From: Escherichia phage PEC9
Sequence record: ON548431.1
Length of the DNA: 44,379 nt
Reading direction: 5' to 3' (one strand)
Positions 687 through 34,346 of the stretch are shown here, piece by piece. Numbering within the stretch: the first letter of the stretch is position 1; each line of letters begins with the position of its first letter. The translations under genes and the position numbers were made by a program. A model generated the notes under the pieces. It saw nothing but the letters and a program-made list of their open reading frames with translations. It did not search any database and was not told where the DNA came from.

Positions 687-1216
687 AATTACTATTCCGC
701 CGCAAATCCGACGGCAAAATTCTCAGGCCAATACAGACCCTGGCCGCACACGTGCGCCTACACCACGCCGCAAGCGATCGGGTCTGGTGGGAGTCAAAAG
801 CTAAACTGCCGGAGAAATACGATATCGTCACGCATGATATCGAGCGCGGCGATGTGCTGCGTGATATTCGCGACGGTAGTATGCGGATCGTCGAGTATGT
901 CGGTCTTCATGGTCTGCGTATGCAGAACCGCAAGGATGGCGTCGCCGGTATGACTTACTTCGGCCTTGTCAACTACGAACGAGTGGGCCGCAAATACAGC
1001 CTTAGGGACCGCCAGCAGAATGGGCGCGCCTACGCGACCTACGACTCCCACCAGGTGCAGGCGAAGATGGGCAACGCAGTACGCCAAATCGTCAACCGCT
1101 TTGATGCCGTGACGAACGCACAGCGCCATGCGCAGGAATATGGCGTTGGATTCATCCAGGTGGAACGAGACGGCAGCATGAAAGCCATCGACCCGCGCTC
1201 GGTGATTCTGAAATGA
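683..1216 (+). CDS. Hypothetical protein (177 aa)
   Basis: Internal ATG of ORF 515-1216 chosen: ATG at 683 follows GGAG and overlaps upstream stop; N-terminal extension of the ORF track looks non-coding. Confidence 0.5.
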   Translation: MKLLFRRKSDGKILRPIQTLAAHVRLHHAASDRVWWESKAKLPEKYDIVTHDIERGDVLRDIRDGSMRIVEYVGLHGLRMQNRKDGVAGMTYFGLVNYERVGRKYSLRDRQQNGRAYATYDSHQVQAKMGNAVRQIVNRFDAVTNAQRHAQEYGVGFIQVERDGSMKAIDPRSVILK

Positions 1217-2210: not shown

Positions 2211-2688
2211 CAACGGTCTACGATTTACGGCAGCCTGGGAGGCTTTCAGCCCGGTGCCGTATTTCGCGACCAAGAAAGAGCAGGCCCGCGGCCTGTACAC
2301 CTGGGGTTATGGTCATACCGGCACTAATCCGCCTCGAAGCATTACCCGCGAGGAAGCGCTGGCACTTCTCAAGCGCGATGTGGCGTATGCCGAGGATTGG
2401 GTGAACAAATACGCACATCCGAGCATTAACCAGGCGCAATTCGACGCGCTGGTGGACCTGGTAATCAATGCCGGTCCGGGGCCGATCGTACCGGATGACG
2501 TCGCGAATGATTTCGATGATGCGGTGCGACTGGGAGACTGGGCGAAGGTCCGTGCTACTCTGCCGCAGTTCCGCAAGCAAGGTGGGGAAGTGCTTAAGGG
2601 TCTGGTACGCCGTGCAATCGGCAGACAGGCGTTGTTTGATGGTAAGCAGTGGGACGTTGCCGAGAAAATCGGGCGTAACGCTGCATAA
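2197..2688 (+). CDS. Endolysin, phage lysozyme-like (GH24-type inferred)
   Basis: 163 aa; N-terminal Glu in WEAF, YTWGYGHTG segment, C-terminal GGEVLKGLVRRAIGRQALF typical of phage lysozymes. Confidence 0.7.
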   Translation: MRFSDNGLRFTAAWEAFSPVPYFATKKEQARGLYTWGYGHTGTNPPRSITREEALALLKRDVAYAEDWVNKYAHPSINQAQFDALVDLVINAGPGPIVPDDVANDFDDAVRLGDWAKVRATLPQFRKQGGEVLKGLVRRAIGRQALFDGKQWDVAEKIGRNAA

Positions 2689-2704
2689 TACGAGGTAACA
2701 CAGT

Positions 2705-2872
2705 ATGTTAAAAAGCATTCTTGATCATAACGCCGACGCGCTCGCCGCGCTGGCTAAAACCGAAGACCCCGGCGCCCGCGCTATCATCGCGGACACTATC
2801 AACCACGCTGGGGTCTTCGATGCGAAGCTGCCAAGCCCACCACCGCAGGATGCATCCGGCCACGCAGCGTAA
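2705..2872 (+). CDS. Small hypothetical protein (55 aa), below ORF-track cut-off
   Basis: ATG at 2705 after GAGG; codons stepped by hand to TAA 2870-2872; followed by terminator. Confidence 0.3.
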   Translation: MLKSILDHNADALAALAKTEDPGARAIIADTINHAGVFDAKLPSPPPQDASGHAA

Positions 2873-3109: not shown

Positions 3110-4252
3110 ATGCACCCGCAAACTAAAATTACCGATGAGCAATTGATCGCAGAAATTCAGGCAGGGACTACGGTTAAAGAGATTGCGAAGAAATACGGGA
3201 TTGCCCTGCGCAATGTCTATATGCGCAAAGCCCGCCTGTCGAAAAAGGGAATTGGTCACGGCAATGATGCCGTGATCCGTAAGCGCGTTGCCGATGGTTT
3301 TGGGGTTAAGCGCGTATCGGCCCTGGTGCGCGGAAATGGCGAAGAGGTCATGTCGTGGGTCATCACTGAGCAGGACAAGGAGCGCCAACTCGAAGCTATG
3401 CGCGCTGTTGTCGAGGGTATGAACAGCGAAATCACACCGGCAGCGCCTGTAAACGCCCCGCCAGTACCGATCCAGGCGCTCGACTTGCTCAACCTGTACA
3501 CCGTGTCAGACTTTCACCTGGGAATGCTGGCATGGGGTGAGGAGACTGGCGAAGACTGGGATATGGCGATCGCCGAAGACTTGTTCTACCGCTGGTTTGT
3601 CGAAGCCTTCGCCCGCGCACCGGACGCAGGCACTGCCGTTATCAATATCCTCGGGGATATGGCCCACTTTGATAGCCTGGATGCAGTCACCCCGGCAAGC
3701 GGTCACGTACTGGACGCCGACACCCGCTACCAGAAACTGGTCCGATACATGATTCGCATGGTGCGCAACGTCGTAGAACTTGCGCTGCAAAAACACCACA
3801 AAGTCAAACTGCTAATCGTCCAGGGTAATCATGACGAATCCGGTATGATTTGGCTTGCTGAGATGTTCAATACCTTGTATGAGAACGAGCCGCGCGTCGA
3901 TGTGGACACGTCCCCGGACGTCTACAAAATGGTGCAGCACGGTAAGACTACGCTATTTTTCCACCACGGGCACAAAGCGCGATTCGATGTTATCGAGCAG
4001 GTTATGATCGCTAAATTCAGACAGGCGTTCGGGTCGAGCGAATACAGCTACGCGCACGTAGGCCATTTGCACCACCAGAAGATTGTTGAATCCCGCAACA
4101 TGATTGTTGAACAGCACCGGACGCTCGCAGCGAAAGACGCCTACGCCAGTCGTGGCGGTTGGATGTCTGGTCGCAGCGCCAACGTCATTACCTACAGCGC
4201 CAACTACGGCGAAGTAGCGCGCTTAACCATTAGCCCAGAAATGTTGAAGTAA
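3110..4252 (+). CDS. HTH domain fused to calcineurin-like metallophosphoesterase
   Basis: 380 aa; N-terminal helix-turn-helix-like segment (TVKEIAKKYGIALRNVYMRKARL); phosphoesterase motifs SDFHLG, GDMAHFD, GNHDE, HHGH, GHLHH in canonical order. Confidence 0.6.
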   Translation: MHPQTKITDEQLIAEIQAGTTVKEIAKKYGIALRNVYMRKARLSKKGIGHGNDAVIRKRVADGFGVKRVSALVRGNGEEVMSWVITEQDKERQLEAMRAVVEGMNSEITPAAPVNAPPVPIQALDLLNLYTVSDFHLGMLAWGEETGEDWDMAIAEDLFYRWFVEAFARAPDAGTAVINILGDMAHFDSLDAVTPASGHVLDADTRYQKLVRYMIRMVRNVVELALQKHHKVKLLIVQGNHDESGMIWLAEMFNTLYENEPRVDVDTSPDVYKMVQHGKTTLFFHHGHKARFDVIEQVMIAKFRQAFGSSEYSYAHVGHLHHQKIVESRNMIVEQHRTLAAKDAYASRGGWMSGRSANVITYSANYGEVARLTISPEMLK

Positions 4253-28532: not shown

Positions 28533-29106
28533 AGTTTGAGTTTTCCCAGTCCATTTTGCGCCGCACAAGCGGGCTTTCGTAATATTCCTTACCTTCCACT
28601 TCCACTAAAGGCCAATCGTTCACGATCACGTATGGCTCTGCTATGTCCTCAATCACACCGTGCGCGCTATGCTGCCCGAACGACACACCGACCAGAATAA
28701 CCCCGGCAACTCGACGTGAAAGATACTCGCGAGCGCAACGGGCCTCAACCAGACCGCGACGGATGCCGCTGGTGGCTTTGACCTCATATGTCCAGACGGC
28801 ATCAATCATATGCTCTTTGTAGTCGGGACCGGATTTTACCTTGCGCTTGCCAACCATGATAATATCGCCGCGGTCGATAGTGTTAGCGCTAAACAGGCCG
28901 GTACGCATTAGCAAACCTTGCGGGATACAGCTACGCCCGCCCGCCTGCCCTTCGAGGTACATGCCCGCAAACATCTCGCCAAGCACACCGACAAGACGGC
29001 TTTGCTTGCACGCGTCAGACTTGTATCGCCACTGGTCAAACTCGATGCTTGCTATCATTGCCGCCAGGTGGAATTGTTTACCGGTTATTTCATATTCGCC
29101 GTACAT
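28531..29106 (-). CDS. Hypothetical protein, possible PD-(D/E)xK-type nuclease
   Basis: 191 aa; GAGGGG RBS; segment GPDYKEHMIDAVWTYEVK gives PD-x13-ExK spacing; weak evidence. Confidence 0.35.
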   Translation of the reverse strand: MYGEYEITGKQFHLAAMIASIEFDQWRYKSDACKQSRLVGVLGEMFAGMYLEGQAGGRSCIPQGLLMRTGLFSANTIDRGDIIMVGKRKVKSGPDYKEHMIDAVWTYEVKATSGIRRGLVEARCAREYLSRRVAGVILVGVSFGQHSAHGVIEDIAEPYVIVNDWPLVEVEGKEYYESPLVRRKMDWENSN

Positions 29107-29148
29107 TGTGAACCCCTCATTGATGCGGGCCGAAGCCCGCTATTAGAA

Positions 29149-29670
29149 TTATTTAAGTGCGCCAGTCACCAGTGTTTTTTCCATGTTACGGAAATCTTCC
29201 TGCGTCATGCAGATTTTCGATCCGTCTTCGCCCGTGAGCACGACCATAGGCTGGACGTCCTGGGCTACAACTCCAAAATTGGCGGCGTTAACCGTCTTGC
29301 CAACAGATGAAGAAGGATGCCACGTCCCCGCGACGTCGATGGGCCAACCTTTGAGGCTATCGTATTGCGCTGCCGTTGTATCGATCTGAATCTCGTCATG
29401 CACGGTCATGTAAGACTCGCCCAGCAGGGCGGCATACGCCACCAGATCCACGATGTTATCTTCCTGGTGTTTACGGTGCTGGCGCACCAGCTTCAGGCAG
29501 ATCAGGAAGGTCCAGGCTTCTTGCTCGGACAGGTCGCGCCCGGTAAGCGCGTTAAACACGGCAGCGATTTGTTTAGCGCTGCGTTCTTCTTTCGCGTTGT
29601 CATAGCCGTTTTCTTTCCCGCGCTGTTCCATAGTGGTGGCGGCGTTTTTGCAGTATTCGTATGCTTTCAC
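29149..29670 (-). CDS. Hypothetical protein (173 aa)
   Basis: GTG start at 29670 with AAGGG upstream, or internal ATG 29631; no motif recognised. Confidence 0.45.
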   Translation of the reverse strand: MKAYEYCKNAATTMEQRGKENGYDNAKEERSAKQIAAVFNALTGRDLSEQEAWTFLICLKLVRQHRKHQEDNIVDLVAYAALLGESYMTVHDEIQIDTTAAQYDSLKGWPIDVAGTWHPSSSVGKTVNAANFGVVAQDVQPMVVLTGEDGSKICMTQEDFRNMEKTLVTGALK

Positions 29671-29724
29671 AGTATTACCCTTTTTAGTGAGGGGGCTGTA
29701 TTGCCCCCGACACGTTTACTATAG

Positions 29725-29747
29725 TGCAACCAATCTATTGGTTGCAA
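29725..29747. promoter_or_regulatory. Perfect palindrome TGCAACCAAT-cta-ATTGGTTGCA
   Basis: Read directly; overlaps the stop codon of the minus-strand HAD gene and lies about 55 bp upstream of the next minus-strand start; adjacent GGGGGC-N6-GCCCCC hairpin at 29691-29708. Confidence 0.55.
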
Positions 29748-30205
29748 GTGAATTTTGCAACGTTTATCGCGTAAATTTTCGGGACCAAATCACCACACGC
29801 CCGACGAATTGCTGCGATGTTCTTCGGGCAGTCTTCAATGATGACCAGTTCCGACACGTCCGCATAACAGACCATTTTGAACACGGCGCACGCCTTAAAC
29901 TCTGGCGGCGGGGTGTCGTCCAGCATGTGGCGCATAAACAACCTGCCTACCGGGAAGACCTCCAATTGCTCGGCGGTGGTTTCCCAGCATTCTCGCTGCC
30001 GGTTGGTCAGATACGCGATCTCGAAGCCTTGCTCTTTATACATGCGCAGTAGCGGCAGCATATCCATGTTCAGGTCTTCGCGGACGTGCGCCTTGTGCCA
30101 CTTCGCCCAAAAGGTGGATTTAGTTTTTACACCCGGCACCAGGTCGGCACGCGCATCGCTTGAACCGTTAATAACGCCATCCAAATCGCAAATCAGTAAT
30201 TTCAT
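29735..30205 (-). CDS. HAD-superfamily hydrolase (nucleotidase/phosphatase-like)
   Basis: 156 aa; N-terminal DxDGV motif (LICDLDGV) typical of HAD phosphatases. Confidence 0.5.
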   Translation of the reverse strand: MKLLICDLDGVINGSSDARADLVPGVKTKSTFWAKWHKAHVREDLNMDMLPLLRMYKEQGFEIAYLTNRQRECWETTAEQLEVFPVGRLFMRHMLDDTPPPEFKACAVFKMVCYADVSELVIIEDCPKNIAAIRRACGDLVPKIYAINVAKFTCNQ

Positions 30206-30426
30206 TTTAAGCTCTCAATAAGGGTGTATCGGGCGCTGCGCGCGGTGAAGGAGTTACACACGAAATGGCAACGCGTGGTTATGACAAGCCAGCCGGTAAG
30301 ATCTAGGCCCAGAATATATTCAGGCCGCGACACGCGACGCACACGATCGCGGCGGGGGTCGATGCAGAAGTCTTTTTGCATTTGGTCTACTACCGCAGGG
30401 TCGCGGTCAACGATTAAGATATTCAA
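30202..30426 (-). CDS. Hypothetical protein (74 aa)
   Basis: TTG start with strong AAGGAG RBS 6 nt upstream; overlaps 3' end of upstream methyltransferase gene in another frame. Confidence 0.35.
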   Translation of the reverse strand: MNILIVDRDPAVVDQMQKDFCIDPRRDRVRRVSRPEYILGLDLTGWLVITTRCHFVCNSFTARSARYTLIESLK

Positions 30427-30892
30427 GGAGTTCTCCTTCGCTCATTATTTCAATTTGTGCGCTGCCGGTGGGCGGCGCTTCGTCAAAGATTATCAATTGC
30501 TGGCACTTGTTATTGCTCGGACCGACTTCACCGGTTACAGCATGTATGAATCGGATCCGCCAGTCCAGAAGAATTATCAGGTTTGCAGTCTTCCGGGCCA
30601 GCTTTGCCCACTTCGTCGACGTGTCCTGATTCAGCAGCATGACGGTCCGGCGTCCGTGCGCTGCACACTCGACCCACGGCAGCGGATCGGAATACGGCGG
30701 GTTGCACCACTTCCACCCTTTCAACTCTGACCAGTCCGCCTCAAGCGCGCTGTGCTCTGCCGTGAAGTAACGCGGTAGCAGGTGGTTGGCATCGCTCGCC
30801 GCCATGTCATAACGGAATCGGTACTTCCGGCGCAGCGGTTTAAATAAAGCTGGCGGCGTGCGCCAGCTATCTTTTTGCTCACTCTTCTGCAT
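30407..30892 (-). CDS. DNA N6-adenine methyltransferase (phage Dam-like)
   Basis: 161 aa; NPPY catalytic motif (WCNPPYSD); compact size typical of phage amino-methyltransferases. Confidence 0.65.
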   Translation of the reverse strand: MQKSEQKDSWRTPPALFKPLRRKYRFRYDMAASDANHLLPRYFTAEHSALEADWSELKGWKWCNPPYSDPLPWVECAAHGRRTVMLLNQDTSTKWAKLARKTANLIILLDWRIRFIHAVTGEVGPSNNKCQQLIIFDEAPPTGSAQIEIMSEGELLEYLNR

Positions 30893-31343
30893 GGTCGGTG
30901 TCTATCGCATACAGGGCGATTTTATCGCCGGTTTTGAGAATGCGTTGCACGCGCTTTGTCCCCTCGACACTAAGCGGACGCGCGTCCGGGTAGAAGCTGC
31001 CATTTGTAGGGTTGCGCCACGCCATAAGCACCAAATCTTTACGGTCAACCTTAGACTGGCGACCCTTCGGTCGCACGTACTCCTCGGCCCGTTTACAGTG
31101 CTCCCGCAACGCCTCAGCCGTGATGCGGTTTAGTGCAACGCTGGTGGTGTATCCGGTGCGCTGCATAATCCCCATCAATTCGAATAGCAGTCCGAAGCGC
31201 TCCGCTAGATCCTGGCGCACTTTCTTCTCTCCTTCATATAGCGCCTGGTTGGTGTCCGCCAACGCGTTCGCACGTTCGGCCTGTTCGCGGGCTTTAAGGC
31301 ATTGCGCAGCCCAGTAATCCTTTTCTTCTTGTAAAATTTTCAT
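30879..31343 (-). CDS. Hypothetical protein (154 aa)
   Basis: Minus-strand ORF in replication block; helical N-terminal half; no motif recognised. Confidence 0.45.
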   Translation of the reverse strand: MKILQEEKDYWAAQCLKAREQAERANALADTNQALYEGEKKVRQDLAERFGLLFELMGIMQRTGYTTSVALNRITAEALREHCKRAEEYVRPKGRQSKVDRKDLVLMAWRNPTNGSFYPDARPLSVEGTKRVQRILKTGDKIALYAIDTDHAEE

Positions 31344-31586
31344 CTATTTAAACTCCGTTGTGCGGATTTCCTTGCGTGGTATAAATTTGCCGTCTTTCTC
31401 GACCCAGCAAGTGCCACCGCGCCACTGGGTGTTACGACCTGTTAGTTCTGCGTAGACAATCCGGCATTCATATTTATCGAGGTTATACGTGCAGGAAATC
31501 GGCAGCAGGAGACAAAAGAATAAGAACAGCACCATACACACCCAAAAACGTAAATCCCCGTCGTCGTCAAAAAAGAATCGTTTCAT
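31344..31586 (-). CDS. Small membrane protein (80 aa)
   Basis: ATG 31586 with GAGGA RBS; one strong hydrophobic helix (FWVCMVLFLFFCLLLPI). Confidence 0.4.
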   Translation of the reverse strand: MKRFFFDDDGDLRFWVCMVLFLFFCLLLPISCTYNLDKYECRIVYAELTGRNTQWRGGTCWVEKDGKFIPRKEIRTTEFK

Positions 31587-31638
31587 GGTTAAATCCTCAT
31601 ATAAAAAAGGGCATCCAAACCGGACACCCTCAATATAA

Positions 31639-31665
31639 TGCAACCAATATGATTATGCAACCAAT
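31639..31665. promoter_or_regulatory. Two direct copies of TGCAACCAAT, 17 bp apart
   Basis: Read at 31639-31648 and 31656-31665, about 55 bp upstream of minus-strand start 31586. Confidence 0.5.
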
Positions 31666-31989
31666 TTACGCATAAAAGTTAGGGTCGCGTGCAACGTCTA
31701 CCAAATACAGATTGCTGATTCGGTTGCCGTAGTGGCCTGGCGTGCGCTGACGGCACACTACGGCATAGCCTGGAGGTATTGTATTGCCAGTCTCAATGAT
31801 CCACGCCACGCGTGCGCCAGACAGCGTCTTGCCGTTGTACTCGATACGAGTACCGCCATCGGCAGTGTTAAGGTTGCCAATCTTGCTACCGGTAGACTTC
31901 AGGCGGATGACGCCCGTTTTACTGTCGTAGGTGAATAGCTGATTGGTCATTGCTACCGAAAAATCGATGGCTTCGAATGTGGTATTCAT
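31666..31989 (-). CDS. Hypothetical protein, weak HNH-endonuclease-like C-terminal pattern
   Basis: 107 aa; segment GHYGNRISNLYLV loosely resembles HNH H-x-D-G-N...N-L motif; not confident. Confidence 0.3.
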   Translation of the reverse strand: MNTTFEAIDFSVAMTNQLFTYDSKTGVIRLKSTGSKIGNLNTADGGTRIEYNGKTLSGARVAWIIETGNTIPPGYAVVCRQRTPGHYGNRISNLYLVDVARDPNFYA

Positions 31990-32696
31990 TCTAAATTTTC
32001 CTCGTTAACTGCGATTGCGAAGCCGCGCGGGGTGCGCGACCTGATTAGTTTGGTGCGGGCCGATTTGCCTCCGAGGCGACTATACTGCTTCGAGTACCCT
32101 TTTTCAACGAAAACAGGTTTCTTCTCTGGCATACGGAAGCCGTTGCCGGTCCATAAGCAGGTCAGCTTCGGATATGAATCGCGGGCGTTGATGTATTCAG
32201 GGAATAACGGGTGTACGTCATCCTCTGGCAAATAGCCTCCATACTCCCACGGGTCAAACGAGTGGTCCGGCTTACGCCATTGAGTGGAGAGCACGCTGCG
32301 CGGATTCTCAATCATATACGGCACTTCGAAGAAATCACCCAGGTAAGCGGCGATCTTCGCGGTGCGCACCGCCTTAAGCTGGAAGGCAGGGTCGCGGGCG
32401 CGTTTGCGCGGGAACGCTGGCGCACCACTAACCGCCAGATCCGTACACGGCGGGAATGCATAGATGATATCCGGCGTGCCGAAATCACCATTCATCGCGC
32501 GGTCCACGAAGTCCAGATCGATAAACTCATTACGATATCGGATACCGCGCCCATAAATCCGGTAGTCCAGGTACGACCCGTGATCGGCTTCGGAGTAGTT
32601 GAAGCAATAACACTTATGCCCCATCTCGGCAGCACGCTCAATCATCAAGCCGCTGCCGTCGAATAATGACCAGATTGTCATTTTAGCAATAGTCAT
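31986..32696 (-). CDS. DNA cytosine-5 methyltransferase-like protein (compact)
   Basis: 236 aa; motif I-like LFDGSG, catalytic PPC (AFPPCTDLAVSGA), ENP resembling the ENV motif; short for a full C5 enzyme. Confidence 0.45.
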   Translation of the reverse strand: MTIAKMTIWSLFDGSGLMIERAAEMGHKCYCFNYSEADHGSYLDYRIYGRGIRYRNEFIDLDFVDRAMNGDFGTPDIIYAFPPCTDLAVSGAPAFPRKRARDPAFQLKAVRTAKIAAYLGDFFEVPYMIENPRSVLSTQWRKPDHSFDPWEYGGYLPEDDVHPLFPEYINARDSYPKLTCLWTGNGFRMPEKKPVFVEKGYSKQYSRLGGKSARTKLIRSRTPRGFAIAVNEENLE

Positions 32697-34117
32697 TTGC
32701 GCGCCTTTTTAGCTTTCATATATTCCATCAGGTCGTCCTGAATATCTCGCTTACTGTCTCGACGCTCTGCGACTAGTTCATCCAGTGTGCCGCGCGCCTG
32801 GATAATGTAGACGAATACCGGACGAGGGTGTCCGGCTTGCATCTGGCGAACTGGCCCGATACGCTCCACGATCTGCGCAAAGTGCTCATAGTTCCAGGTA
32901 TCTGAGAAGATAGCAAGGTGGTGCCCGCCATCCTGCAAGTTAAGGCCGTGACCCGCCGATGCCGGGTGCGCGAACATGATGGGGATCTCGCCCCTGTTCC
33001 ACGCTTCCATATCCTTATTGCCTTGCTTACCCTTACCCATCGCTACGCCGTGAGGGAATTTCTTCTTAAGACGTGCCAAGTCATGCTTGTACTGGTATGC
33101 TACGAGCAACGGTGCGCCGTTCAACTCTTCCACGATACTTTCCAGCGCGTCCAGTTTAGCGTCGTGAATTTTCACCCATTCGTCGGTGCGCTCGCCGTCT
33201 TCGTCGACCTTATACACGGCCCCGGAAGCAAGCTGAAGGCACTTAATGGTCTTCGAAGCAGCGTTCGCCGCCTCCACCGTTCCGCTTTCCAGTTCGGCAA
33301 ATAGCTCCGCTTCGAACTGGTCATAAATCTTGCGGGCTTTCTTCGGCAGGTCCACAACAACCGGCGTATAGATTGGCTTGTCACATCCGAAGTATTCAGC
33401 CGCGTCAACGGTAAGGGATACGTCAGACAGGCGTTGTTGGATCTCCTTCTCGGAGTTCTTTAGCGGGGCGTGCTGCATAGTGAAGCTGCCAGGCTTAACA
33501 GGCTTGCTAATAAACCAGCGATCCGTAAATGCCTTATAGCTACTGCCGAGGCGTTCGCCACCATCGACAAACCATGTCTGCCCCCATAGGTCTTTCAGCC
33601 CGTTCGGTGCGGGTGTGCCGGTCAGGTTAATCCAGCGCTTGACGTGCTTATGTGCGATCGCTGCCAGCGCACGGGCGCGCTTGCTCCCCTGCTTGCTACG
33701 ATAGCCTTTCAGCTTAGTCGATTCATCGGCAACAACGACCGTAAAGGGCCACGCATCGCCGTAATAGTCGACCAGCCACTCAACCACATCGTAGTTAACA
33801 CAAACCACGTTAGCGTCGCTCTCAAGCGCCGCAATACGGTCCTTCTCCGGCCCGGTGCCGTCTACGACCAGCAGGGATGAGAATCGCCATTTCTCCTGTT
33901 CCGGGGGCCAGGTGCCGGACGCAACGCGCAGCGGGGCCAGCACCAGTACGCGGTCCTCCTGGCTGGACAGGATACCAGTCTGGAACATTTTATTCAGCGC
34001 CCACATAGTCGCGCCGGTTTTACCCGACCCCATTGTCGCCCATATATTGCATCGCTTATGTTTTAGGATGAACGCGGTTATCAACTTCTGATATTCGCGA
34101 CGTCGGAATCGTGCCAT
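32693..34117 (-). CDS. Superfamily 2 helicase (SNF2/DEAD-like)
   Basis: 474 aa from ATG 34117 (ORF track start is upstream); Walker A GSGKTG, DExx-like VVADES box, further helicase-like segments. Confidence 0.75.
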   Translation of the reverse strand: MARFRRREYQKLITAFILKHKRCNIWATMGSGKTGATMWALNKMFQTGILSSQEDRVLVLAPLRVASGTWPPEQEKWRFSSLLVVDGTGPEKDRIAALESDANVVCVNYDVVEWLVDYYGDAWPFTVVVADESTKLKGYRSKQGSKRARALAAIAHKHVKRWINLTGTPAPNGLKDLWGQTWFVDGGERLGSSYKAFTDRWFISKPVKPGSFTMQHAPLKNSEKEIQQRLSDVSLTVDAAEYFGCDKPIYTPVVVDLPKKARKIYDQFEAELFAELESGTVEAANAASKTIKCLQLASGAVYKVDEDGERTDEWVKIHDAKLDALESIVEELNGAPLLVAYQYKHDLARLKKKFPHGVAMGKGKQGNKDMEAWNRGEIPIMFAHPASAGHGLNLQDGGHHLAIFSDTWNYEHFAQIVERIGPVRQMQAGHPRPVFVYIIQARGTLDELVAERRDSKRDIQDDLMEYMKAKKARK

Positions 34118-34121
34118 ATCT

Positions 34122-34346
34122 TTATTCCGCCTTTTTCCAGACTTCGGTTTCACTGTTCCAATTCCTCTTAGTGGCGTAATAGTATGGGTCGTGCTCAAGG
34201 TGCACACCGGTAGCGCGGAAGCTCTGGAACTTTTGCCAGCACACGGTCAGCGGCAGCGGTTTAGCCATTCCTGAAGTAAACCATACGCGATCGCCCGGTT
34301 TACATTCGCCCAGCTTGGTGAGTCGGTAATGTTCTTTCATCGTCAT
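34122..34346 (-). CDS. Hypothetical protein (74 aa)
   Basis: ATG 34346 with GGAGAT RBS; the longer 143-aa ORF upstream overlaps another ORF and is less likely. Confidence 0.35.
   Translation of the reverse strand: MTMKEHYRLTKLGECKPGDRVWFTSGMAKPLPLTVCWQKFQSFRATGVHLEHDPYYYATKRNWNSETEVWKKAE

Follow-up and report, generated by a model that had tools for sequence, protein, structure and literature searches.

Two orphan DNA methyltransferases with a presumed anti-restriction role in a conserved Dhillonvirus operon of Escherichia phage PEC9

Introduction

What do two methyltransferase-like genes lying within 2.3 kb of each other do for a small phage, and do the genes around them belong to the same function? 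The question is raised by Escherichia phage PEC9 (ON548431.1), whose 44,379 nucleotides are the window analysed here. An initial annotation of the window recognized a Dam-like N6-adenine methyltransferase and a compact protein resembling C5-cytosine methyltransferases, with a possible HNH-like gene between them, and read the pair as self-protective DNA modification against host restriction. The present analysis established what the genes encode, which motifs and predicted folds their products have, what they are homologous to and how well they are conserved. The locus is very probably part of a conserved minus-strand DNA-metabolism operon of Dhillonvirus that encodes two orphan SAM-dependent DNA methyltransferases with a presumed anti-restriction role, next to an HNH-like protein that is most likely inactive and a HAD phosphatase that is independent of them.

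Results

Gene organization of the locus

The phage is a Dhillonvirus, and over positions 29000-34300 its sequence matches that of Escherichia phage PEC14 with 100% identity. Of the 160 matching Dhillonvirus-group records, 147 contain at least 80% of these 5.3 kb, and the names "Dam-like N6-adenine methyltransferase" and "Dcm-like C5 cytosine methyltransferase" are used in many of the records. All genes of the set lie in a single minus-strand operon, in which stop codons overlap start codons (Table 1). At an ATGA junction, the TGA stop of the SNF2-family helicase gene shares bases with the ATG of the Dcm-like gene, and overlaps of this kind indicate that translation of the Dcm-like gene is coupled to that of the helicase gene and of the HNH-like gene.

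The two methyltransferase reading frames had been located exactly in the initial annotation. Two more reading frames between them, of 154 and 80 codons, were absent from it. The mechanical frame of the shorter one reaches a TTG at 31643, and relatives annotate the 243-bp ATG form, for example Oekolampad at the same place. Similarly, the mechanical helicase frame extends to a GTG at 34207, and the 1425-bp form is the one annotated in relatives. The 154-aa protein has no detectable ligase domain and no match in Pfam, NCBIfam or PADLOC. Its gene is called "DNA ligase" in some records, one depositor remarking "putative DNA ligase but no evidence".

Table 1. Genes of the methyltransferase locus, in window positions.
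Gene product	Coordinates	Strand	Basis
Probable HAD-superfamily phosphatase, 156 aa	29735..30205	-	phrog_415 E 9e-37
Hypothetical protein, 74 aa	30202..30426	-	phrog_10685 E 2e-45; 20-nt overlap with the end of the Dam gene
Dam-like N6-adenine DNA methyltransferase, 161 aa	30407..30892	-	PF05869, NPPY
Hypothetical protein, 154 aa	30879..31343	-	phrog_10530 E 5e-94 (family label "DNA ligase")
Hypothetical protein, 80 aa, one hydrophobic segment	31344..31586	-	phrog_18961 E 4e-45 over residues 20-99
HNH-like protein, 107 aa	31666..31989	-	phrog_99, I-HmuI-like fold
Dcm-like protein, compact C5-cytosine DNA methyltransferase, 236 aa	31986..32696	-	ORF list, phrog_757, fold
SNF2-family DNA helicase, directly upstream of the Dcm-like gene	32693..34117	-	PF00176 E 9e-11; phrog_62 E 3.5e-158

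The Dam-like N6-adenine methyltransferase

The Dam-like protein matches PF05869 far above the cutoff (E 6e-36, 124.1 bits versus 28.1) over model positions 5-146 of 169, and phrog_111 with E 6e-56. Its translation contains the catalytic motif (D/N)PP(Y/F) as N64-P65-P66-Y67. These results confirm the N6-adenine methyltransferase proposed from the sequence. The protein also matches the PADLOC orphan-methyltransferase model (E 4e-11), and it scores under the TIGR01712 equivalog cutoff (88.4 versus 97.05 bits). Homologues occur in 1756 phage records, including those of Stx-converting phages.

The protein shares the NPPY motif and the nearly whole-model Pfam match with the phage Dam family (PF05869/TIGR01712) of Stx-converting and T1-like phages. 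It is 37% identical to the enzymes of Stx-converting phages and 30% identical to the Dam-like enzyme of phage KarlJaspers (E 1e-14), and it is shorter than the T1-group enzyme of 233 aa. Phage Dam members of the PF05869 type methylate GATC. The Dam-like enzyme would methylate adenine at N6 through its NPPY motif, and by family precedent GATC is its most likely target.

Sequence and fold of the Dcm-like protein

The Dcm-like protein carries the catalytic motifs of C5-cytosine methyltransferases. The motif I SAM loop reads F12-D-G-S-G16, motif IV reads P82-P83-C84 with Cys84 as the catalytic cysteine, and motif VI reads E130-N131-P132, an ENP variant of ENV. Among 50 homologues, F12, S15 and G16 of the loop and the whole of motifs IV and VI are invariant. 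Towards the C-terminus the sequence reads L208-G-G-K-S ... R219-S-x-T-P-R-G-F-A. The insert of residues 137-190 has a conservation of 0.78, compared with 0.75-0.95 at the catalytic motifs, suggesting one specificity common to the family.

The profile search recommended in the initial annotation gave phrog_757 (E 7e-84), and the protein has 2714 database homologues. Pfam and NCBIfam gave no match to the protein as such, PF00145 being absent even at E 0.1 to 1, and the link to PF00145 runs through its homologues, 29 of the 50 matching that model at E<1 (best E 1.3e-6). No PDB relative was detectable by sequence. The AlphaFold2 model (pLDDT 91.9, pTM 0.90) has the catalytic-domain fold of C5-cytosine methyltransferases, and its best Foldseek matches are DNMT3A/B (E 1e-7, probability 1.00). 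Lack of a methyltransferase fold had been named beforehand as evidence against a methyltransferase; the predicted structure resembles DNA C5-methyltransferases. The motifs, phrog_757 and the DNMT3-like fold together identify the protein as a compact C5-cytosine methyltransferase.

Canonical C5 enzymes (PF00145; M.HhaI, M.HaeIII, E. coli Dcm) have the same I-IV-VI order and a nucleophilic cysteine in Pro-Cys. In contrast to the Dcm-like protein, they are about twice as large and contain a large target-recognition domain, and they show ENV and PCQ where the phage protein shows ENP and PPCTD. By analogy, Cys84 would attack cytosine C6, Glu130 would protonate N3, and SAM held by the FDGSG loop would donate the methyl group. 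The short insert 137-190 probably replaces the large target-recognition domain.

Orthology to host E. coli Dcm (M.EcoKDcm) was rejected. The hhalign comparison was insignificant (E 0.2) and aligned 25 columns, covering only motif IV (PPC versus PCQ). Host Dcm has 472 aa and a vsr partner; no vsr-like gene was found in the phage operon in the ORF list or by profile searches. Because the similarity is insignificant, "Dcm-like" denotes the presumed product, in the sense of a 5mC-forming enzyme, and implies no orthology to host Dcm. Identity to the eukaryotic DNMT3A and DNMT3B catalytic domains is just 13-16%, and the Dcm-like protein has neither the regulatory PWWP/ADD domains nor the DNMT3L-type partner of these enzymes. 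The DNMT3 resemblance probably reflects shared compactness rather than close ancestry.

Homology to the Dcm of KarlJaspers and its strain K42

The Dcm-like protein is 53% identical to the Dcm of KarlJaspers (Bas06; E 6e-85, residues 5-236 versus 3-236, both proteins 236 aa). The two share FDGSG, PPC, ENP, the conserved insert and the DNMT3-like fold. Both phages are small E. coli siphoviruses that also carry a Dam-like enzyme, whereas KarlJaspers belongs to Drexlerviridae/Hanrivervirus and has a different gene neighbourhood, the junction of the Dcm-like gene to a helicase operon by ATGA overlaps being found in PEC9.

The activity of the homologue and its triggering of a retron are known from work on K42, a KarlJaspers strain (bioRxiv 10.1101/2023.08.16.553469). 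The 711-bp K42 dcm raises 5mC on the msDNA of retron Ec86 as measured by LC-MS, and no 5mC increase is seen with the C82A/E128A/K175A/K176A mutant. Retron Ec86/Eco1 senses msDNA methylation by K42-type Dcm and aborts infection, which makes such an enzyme costly to the phage; K42 mutants that escape this defence have lost dcm and are viable. Mutating the CCTGG site of the msDNA abolishes defence, and the CCWGG specificity of K42-type Dcm was inferred from such msDNA mutants rather than from genome-wide mapping (bioRxiv 10.1101/2023.08.16.553469). KarlJaspers Cys82, Glu128 and Lys175 align with Cys84, Glu130 and Lys177 of the Dcm-like protein. The fourth residue mutated in K42, Lys176, corresponds to Leu178, at a position variable across the family. 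By this homology, the product of the Dcm-like enzyme would be 5mC in double-stranded DNA, presumably at CCWGG.

Natural losses of the dcm gene

The Dcm-like gene is deleted in at least four sequenced Dhillonviruses. The isolates come from different continents, and the loss arose independently at least three times. An in-frame remnant of 61 aa is left in Teewinot (USA) and in Shigella phage 1b (India), and one of 109 aa in PS2; Dru_SM5 (Japan) has a clean deletion. All loss alleles leave the flanking genes intact, and both remnant alleles stay in frame. These deletions indicate that the Dcm-like gene is dispensable.

Anti-restriction or another role

The presumed function of the two enzymes is to methylate the phage DNA as it replicates; progeny would then be fully modified whatever the Dam/Dcm status of the host, and would be protected from restriction enzymes blocked by Dam or Dcm marks. 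An anti-restriction role of both methyltransferases in this phage is plausible. GATC is not avoided in the genome (169 sites versus 171 expected from a zero-order model or 209 from a Markov model), and neither is CCWGG (150 sites). Common laboratory E. coli hosts already have Dam and Dcm, and their GATC and CCWGG sites are methylated, so any benefit of phage methylation would depend on the host. A broad anti-restriction benefit is unproven, because Dhillonviruses proved comparatively sensitive in BASEL phenotyping to the restriction-modification systems of types I and II used there, and methyltransferase content was not linked to restriction resistance in the related Drexlerviridae.

These BASEL patterns and the methylation already provided by the usual hosts would also fit active methyltransferases whose main role lies elsewhere, in packaging, replication timing, evasion of mismatch or very-short-patch repair, gene regulation, or countering of methylation-dependent defence sensing. 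The position of the genes in a replication operon, with translational coupling to the SNF2 helicase, points in the same direction. However, the natural deletions in Teewinot, Shigella phage 1b, PS2 and Dru_SM5 and the viability of the K42 escape mutants make an essential role in replication or packaging unlikely, at least for Dcm, and a main role outside restriction is on the whole rather unlikely.

The HNH-like and HAD neighbours

The HNH-like gene noticed between the methyltransferases was recovered as to family and fold, while its canonical catalytic histidine proved to be missing. The protein matches phrog_99 (E 1.5e-16) and stays below the Pfam HNH_3 gathering score (E 0.052, 13.6 versus 24.8 bits). 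I-HmuI is the sole meaningful PDB fold match of its AlphaFold2 model (pLDDT 86.9), with probability 0.99, E 0.012 and TM 0.50 over 86 columns. An N-terminal beta-rich region, a beta-beta-alpha core and NRxxNL are shared with the HNH_3/I-HmuI-type endonucleases with an AP2 tail (phrog_99). The canonical HR...DH...DNRxxNL reads A59-R ... C79-R80 ... G88-N89-R-I-S-N93-L, and the Asp-His that supplies the general base is absent, "IDHING" aligning to "VVCRQR". The protein stops 14 residues past the NL motif without an AP2-type C-terminal DNA-binding domain, whereas the canonical aligned relatives, of about 160-270 aa, have both the Asp-His and an AP2-like tail. The protein is probably a relic, a degenerate and truncated relative of homing endonucleases, and the gene product is most likely inactive.

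An active homing endonuclease that spreads its own gene or the adjacent methyltransferase gene among phages would agree with the I-HmuI-like fold, the phrog_99 match, the homing or HNH endonuclease annotation in relatives and the conservation of His86 in a small subgroup with the same variant motif. It is nevertheless improbable: besides the replaced Asp-His and the missing tail, the preceding His-Arg has become Ala59-Arg60, the position of the gene is fixed in about 150 Dhillonvirus genomes instead of patchy, and close homologues (5 clusters) are confined to Dhillonvirus.

The HAD protein is probably, judging from its sequence, a phosphatase domain of the polynucleotide kinase/phosphatase type. 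Its motif I (DxDG) lies in C6-D-L-D-G10 and reads D7-L-D9-G-V, and it is 27% identical, DLDG motif included, to a "putative polynucleotide kinase" of KarlJaspers. All Pfam and NCBIfam HAD models scored below their cutoffs (Acid_phosphat_B, 23.6 bits versus 27). Membership in one nucleotide-metabolism set with the methyltransferases, as suggested earlier, found no support, the shared operon being the sole link, and the HAD phosphatase would be an independent neighbour.

Is the Dcm-like protein a DNA methyltransferase?

With 236 aa against the 472 aa of E. coli Dcm, only motif IV aligned to that enzyme and no Pfam match of its own, the protein might appear too short for a DNA C5-methyltransferase, and the initial annotation had considered that it could be non-catalytic or modify free nucleotides. 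This is highly unlikely. Its family shows no variation at the catalytic cysteine, the ENP glutamate or the SAM loop, and the fold matches DNA C5-methyltransferases specifically. DNMT3-type enzymes, to which the protein is structurally similar, show that an enzyme with a small target-recognition region can be active. A strong argument comes from the homology to the KarlJaspers/K42 enzyme, which has the same length and methylates DNA in vivo in dependence on catalytic residues, the quadruple mutant without the catalytic cysteine making no 5mC.

Transfer of another group, such as a CmoX-type carboxymethyl from carboxy-SAM to give 5-carboxymethylcytosine, is scarcely credible: carboxy-SAM is made in E. 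coli by CmoA (PMC12783734), and the invariant Arg224 of the Dcm-like family starts the last helix near the position of the carboxylate-binding Arg350 of CmoX (a candidate equivalence), but CmoX has been published with a signature of SPPC together with Arg350 while the Dcm-like protein has FPPC with a nearly invariant Phe81, no cmoA or amide-ligase gene occurs in the scanned part of the operon, and LC-MS in the K42 study found a rise specifically in 5mC.

Discussion

Both enzymes are ordinary phage orphan methyltransferases that are already annotated in related Dhillonviruses. The locus carries little weight as a discovery, because of these annotations and because the Dcm family has been characterized biochemically and as a retron trigger. 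All of these genes are "hypothetical protein" in the GenBank record of PEC14, and a confident annotation is now possible.

For phages with the Dcm-like gene, the prediction is sensitivity to Ec86, a retron that E. coli BL21 carries naturally. Such sensitivity would bear on the choice of host and on phage-therapy cocktails, and isolates with a natural deletion already provide the controls. It is possible, if on balance doubtful, that dcm in wild Dhillonviruses is under active counter-selection by product-sensing defences of the retron Ec86/Eco1 type. If so, the locus would document in nature how a gene that serves against restriction also sets off host immunity, and whether dcm persists or disappears would depend on the defences present in local hosts.

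The methyltransferase genes lie in a conserved operon

Two intact and conserved methyltransferase genes, one Dam-like and one Dcm-like, are co-transcribed with replication genes in PEC9. The genes run in the order helicase, Dcm-like, HNH-like, 80 aa, 154 aa, Dam-like, 74 aa and HAD, as they do in Oekolampad. They are tightly packed, their stop and start codons overlap, including ATGA junctions between the helicase and Dcm-like genes and between the Dcm-like and HNH-like genes, and they therefore form a single minus-strand operon. An ORF check of the window reproduced the coordinates of the initial annotation exactly and found the HNH-like and HAD ORFs both to be real; the interval also holds the 154-aa and 80-aa ORFs, which that annotation lacked.

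Positions 29000–34300 of the window are matched at 100% identity by PEC14 and at 88–93% identity by about 150 further Dhillonvirus members, including SSL-2009a, EK99P-1 and the BASEL phages Oekolampad and KarlBarth. At least 80% of this 5.3-kb region was kept in 147 of 160 matching records, and for a 1.5-kb query with the cytosine methyltransferase gene at its centre the figure was 148 of 157. The PEC14 record calls each of the ten genes covered by the match 'hypothetical protein'. In many relatives, the labels are 'Dam-like N6-adenine methyltransferase', 'Dcm-like C5 cytosine methyltransferase', 'putative homing/HNH endonuclease' and 'putative phosphatase'. The PEC14 record (OP046317.1 / NC_073051.1) has 37,268 bp, versus 44,379 bp for the window.

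Coordinates of genes in and near the operon in PEC9 and of the dcm losses in related phages
Feature	Record	Position	Strand	Description
DUF6378 protein	ON548431.1	29149–29670	-	173 aa
HAD protein	ON548431.1	29735–30205	-	
Dam-like protein	ON548431.1	30407–30892	-	161 aa
154-aa protein	ON548431.1	30879–31343	-	154 aa
Small protein	ON548431.1	31344–31643	-	80 aa from ATG at 31586, or 99 aa from upstream TTG
HNH-like protein	ON548431.1	31666–31989	-	107 aa
Dcm-like protein	ON548431.1	31986–32696	-	236 aa
SNF2 helicase	ON548431.1	32693–34207	-	
dcm remnant	Teewinot NC_073053 (retrieved segment)	3486–3671		61 aa in-frame; matches window 31986–32696
dcm remnant	Shigella phage 1b OR420686 (retrieved segment)	987–1172		61 aa in-frame; matches window 31986–32696
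dcm remnant	PS2 PV637039 (retrieved segment)	2507–2836		109 aa in-frame; matches window 31986–32696
dcm full deletion	Dru_SM5 PP920550 (retrieved segment)	984–986		matches window 31986–32696

The SNF2 helicase, whose mechanical ORF begins 30 codons upstream of the start annotated in relatives, has weak PADLOC matches to the defence SNF2 components DpdE, ZorD and DrmD, which are probably generic helicase-domain similarity. Some related records give the 154-aa protein the doubtful name 'DNA ligase' (phrog_10530); no ligase domain was found in it with Pfam or NCBIfam, and one depositor remarked 'putative DNA ligase but no evidence'. Likewise doubtful is 'phosphofructokinase', the name of the DUF6378 protein in both PHROGs and the PS2 record. 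The 80-aa protein, which matches phrog_18961, a family without assigned function, contains a single strongly hydrophobic stretch (FWVCMVLFLFFCLLLPISC) and may be a membrane protein encoded within a DNA-metabolism operon.

The Dcm-like protein is a compact C5-cytosine methyltransferase

The Dcm-like protein contains the motifs F12-D-G-S-G16, P82-P83-C84 and E130-N131-P132, and none of these three catalytic motifs varies across 50 aligned homologues. It matches phrog_757 ('DNA methyltransferase', E 7e-84) and 2714 database proteins at E<=0.001. The protein itself has no match in Pfam or NCBIfam, while 29 of the 50 homologues match PF00145 (C-5 cytosine-specific DNA methylase; best E 1.3e-6), thus tying the phrog_757 family to the canonical enzymes, with the window member below detection. 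Defence-system models gave no match for the Dcm-like, HNH-like or 154-aa protein. Sequence searches of solved structures returned nothing meaningful for the Dcm-like protein or its 50-sequence profile, the Dam-like protein or the HNH-like protein, and fold comparisons alone were informative.

The 236-aa Dcm-like enzyme of KarlJaspers (Bas06) is 53% identical to the PEC9 protein over the full length (E 6e-85). K42, a KarlJaspers strain with a genome 95.4% identical to Bas06, was studied with retron Ec86 (Eco1), which senses methylation of its msDNA (Wang et al., bioRxiv 10.1101/2023.08.16.553469). In that study, the 711-bp dcm gene was lost or disabled in all four K42 mutants that escaped Ec86, and Dcm expression was toxic solely when Ec86 was present. 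Wild-type Dcm produced high 5mC on the Ec86 msDNA as detected by LC-MS, which was not seen with the C82A/E128A/K175A/K176A mutant, and defence was abolished when the CCTGG site of the msDNA stem was altered. Such a Dcm was encoded by 34 of 35 Ec86-sensitive phages (bioRxiv 10.1101/2023.08.16.553469). A later paper sums this up as activation of the Eco1 effector through methylation of the msDNA by a phage cytosine methyltransferase. For the homologue, these results show in vivo 5mC formation on double-stranded DNA by the K42-type enzyme, which is sensed by Ec86.

Cys82, Glu128 and Lys175 of the K42-type enzyme align with Cys84, Glu130 and Lys177 of the PEC9 protein, and Lys176 aligns with Leu178 at a position that is variable within the family. 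The initial annotation had considered that such a short protein could be non-catalytic or could modify nucleotides instead. The conserved motifs oppose this reading, and it is very unlikely because of the activity of K42 Dcm and the aligned catalytic residues. The proposal of a compact C5-cytosine methyltransferase is thus upheld by the invariant motifs, the PF00145-matching homologues and the 53%-identical tested enzyme.

The compact enzyme has half the length of E. coli Dcm and no vsr partner. Profile comparison between E. coli Dcm and the phage family was not significant (E 0.2), with only the Pro-Cys motif IV aligning; therefore capture of a host dcm gene was rejected. Within the C5 methyltransferase superfamily, the Dcm-like enzyme forms a minimal branch of its own. 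With the KarlJaspers enzyme as query, compact homologues were also found on plasmids of Escherichia, Pseudomonas, Acinetobacter and other genera (248 records). The majority of these plasmids are non-mobilizable and may be phage-plasmids.

Target specificity

In place of the large target-recognition domain of canonical enzymes, the phage enzyme has an insert of about 55 residues (137–190). Its mean majority-residue fraction is 0.78, where the motifs reach 0.75–0.95 and the remaining regions about 0.6. Because the insert is conserved nearly like the motifs, we infer that the compact family has a common target specificity. The best guess for this target is CCWGG, based on the msDNA mutants and not on a methylome.

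Site frequencies in the genome showed no depletion or enrichment of GATC, CCWGG or other short palindromes pointing to target sites, and this analysis is uninformative on methyltransferase specificity. The presumed sites are not avoided (169 GATC and 150 CCWGG), which is compatible with protection by modification and proves nothing. Separately, CTAG is strongly depleted in the window, with 15 sites versus 49.5 (Markov) or 171 (base composition) expected, and GGCC shows a mild depletion (ratio 0.71). Enterobacterial genomes are well known to avoid CTAG.

The Dam-like protein is a standard small phage Dam

The N6-adenine methyltransferase assignment was confirmed by an N64-P-P-Y67 motif and by matches to PF05869 (Dam; E 6e-36, 124 bits versus a cutoff of 28) and phrog_111 (E 6e-56). 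The score against the stricter NCBIfam equivalog TIGR01712 was 88.4 bits, slightly under the cutoff of 97.05. A tblastn search retrieved homologues from 1756 phage records, among them T1-like phages and, at 37% identity, Stx-converting phages. Identity to the 233-aa Dam-like enzyme of KarlJaspers is 30%. The PEC9 protein is a small phage Dam of the standard type. GATC methylation by this family was reportedly found in earlier studies of the Dam enzymes of T1, HP1 and VT-2. The literature on PF05869 target specificity yielded no usable statement, nor any placement of the non-specific adenine methyltransferases Hia5, Hin1523 and Nme1821 inside or outside PF05869. GATC specificity of the PEC9 enzyme is an assumption.

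The HNH-like and HAD genes

Close relatives of the HNH-like protein were found in Dhillonvirus only, as five clusters that are all at least 81% identical, and an exhaustive HMMER search gave 20 relatives at E<=0.001. Canonical relatives have HR..W....IDHINGN..DNRIENLRL followed by an AP2-like domain, where the PEC9 protein reads A59-R..W....VVC79-R80-QRTPGH86-YG-N89-RISN93-LYL and ends 14 residues later. The sole meaningful PDB match of its AlphaFold2 model (pLDDT 86.9) was the HNH homing endonuclease I-HmuI (probability 0.99, E 0.012, TM 0.50). The alignment and this match indicate an HNH-like fold without the canonical general-base His or DNA-binding tail, so that the initial HNH-like assignment holds for the fold only. 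We regard the protein as the remnant of a homing endonuclease, either domesticated or in decay. A residual or altered activity is possible, since a small subgroup has the same variant motif including a conserved His86.

The HAD protein has a DxDG motif, matches phrog_415 (E 9e-37) and is 27% identical to a 'putative polynucleotide kinase' of KarlJaspers; its Pfam and NCBIfam matches were all below threshold. The initial annotation had suggested that it could belong to one nucleotide-metabolism set with the methyltransferases, and no functional tie was found.

Natural loss of dcm

Four related phages have lost dcm. Teewinot and Shigella phage 1b have a common remnant with the junction FDGSG|FRMPEKK, and the PS2 remnant is distinct (RIYG|RDSYPK). 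Both in-frame remnants lack the catalytic Cys and ENP and keep the reading frame and the flanking genes. In Dru_SM5, the HNH-like gene directly follows the helicase. The gene is therefore dispensable and repeatedly lost in nature. Both in-frame remnants mirror the laboratory escape from Ec86 by dcm loss in K42, and the natural losses may reflect selection by, or escape from, Dcm-sensing defences such as retrons. Equally, they could be neutral losses during propagation on Dcm+ laboratory hosts. The Druantia/Zorya paper gave no link between Dhillonvirus methyltransferases and phage Dru_SM5.

Proposed role of the methyltransferases

The identification is right but the finding is ordinary, as the genes are conserved genus-wide and many relatives already carry them with methyltransferase annotations, and the cytosine enzyme family is already known, with published biochemistry and a role in phage defence. 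Both enzymes would methylate replicating phage DNA, so that progeny would be fully modified whatever the Dam/Dcm status of the host, and full modification would protect them from restriction enzymes blocked by these marks. In BASEL phenotyping, Dhillonviruses were comparatively sensitive to the type I and type II restriction-modification systems used there, and methyltransferase content and restriction resistance were uncorrelated in Drexlerviridae. Therefore, any benefit of methylation to these phages must be specific to particular restriction systems.
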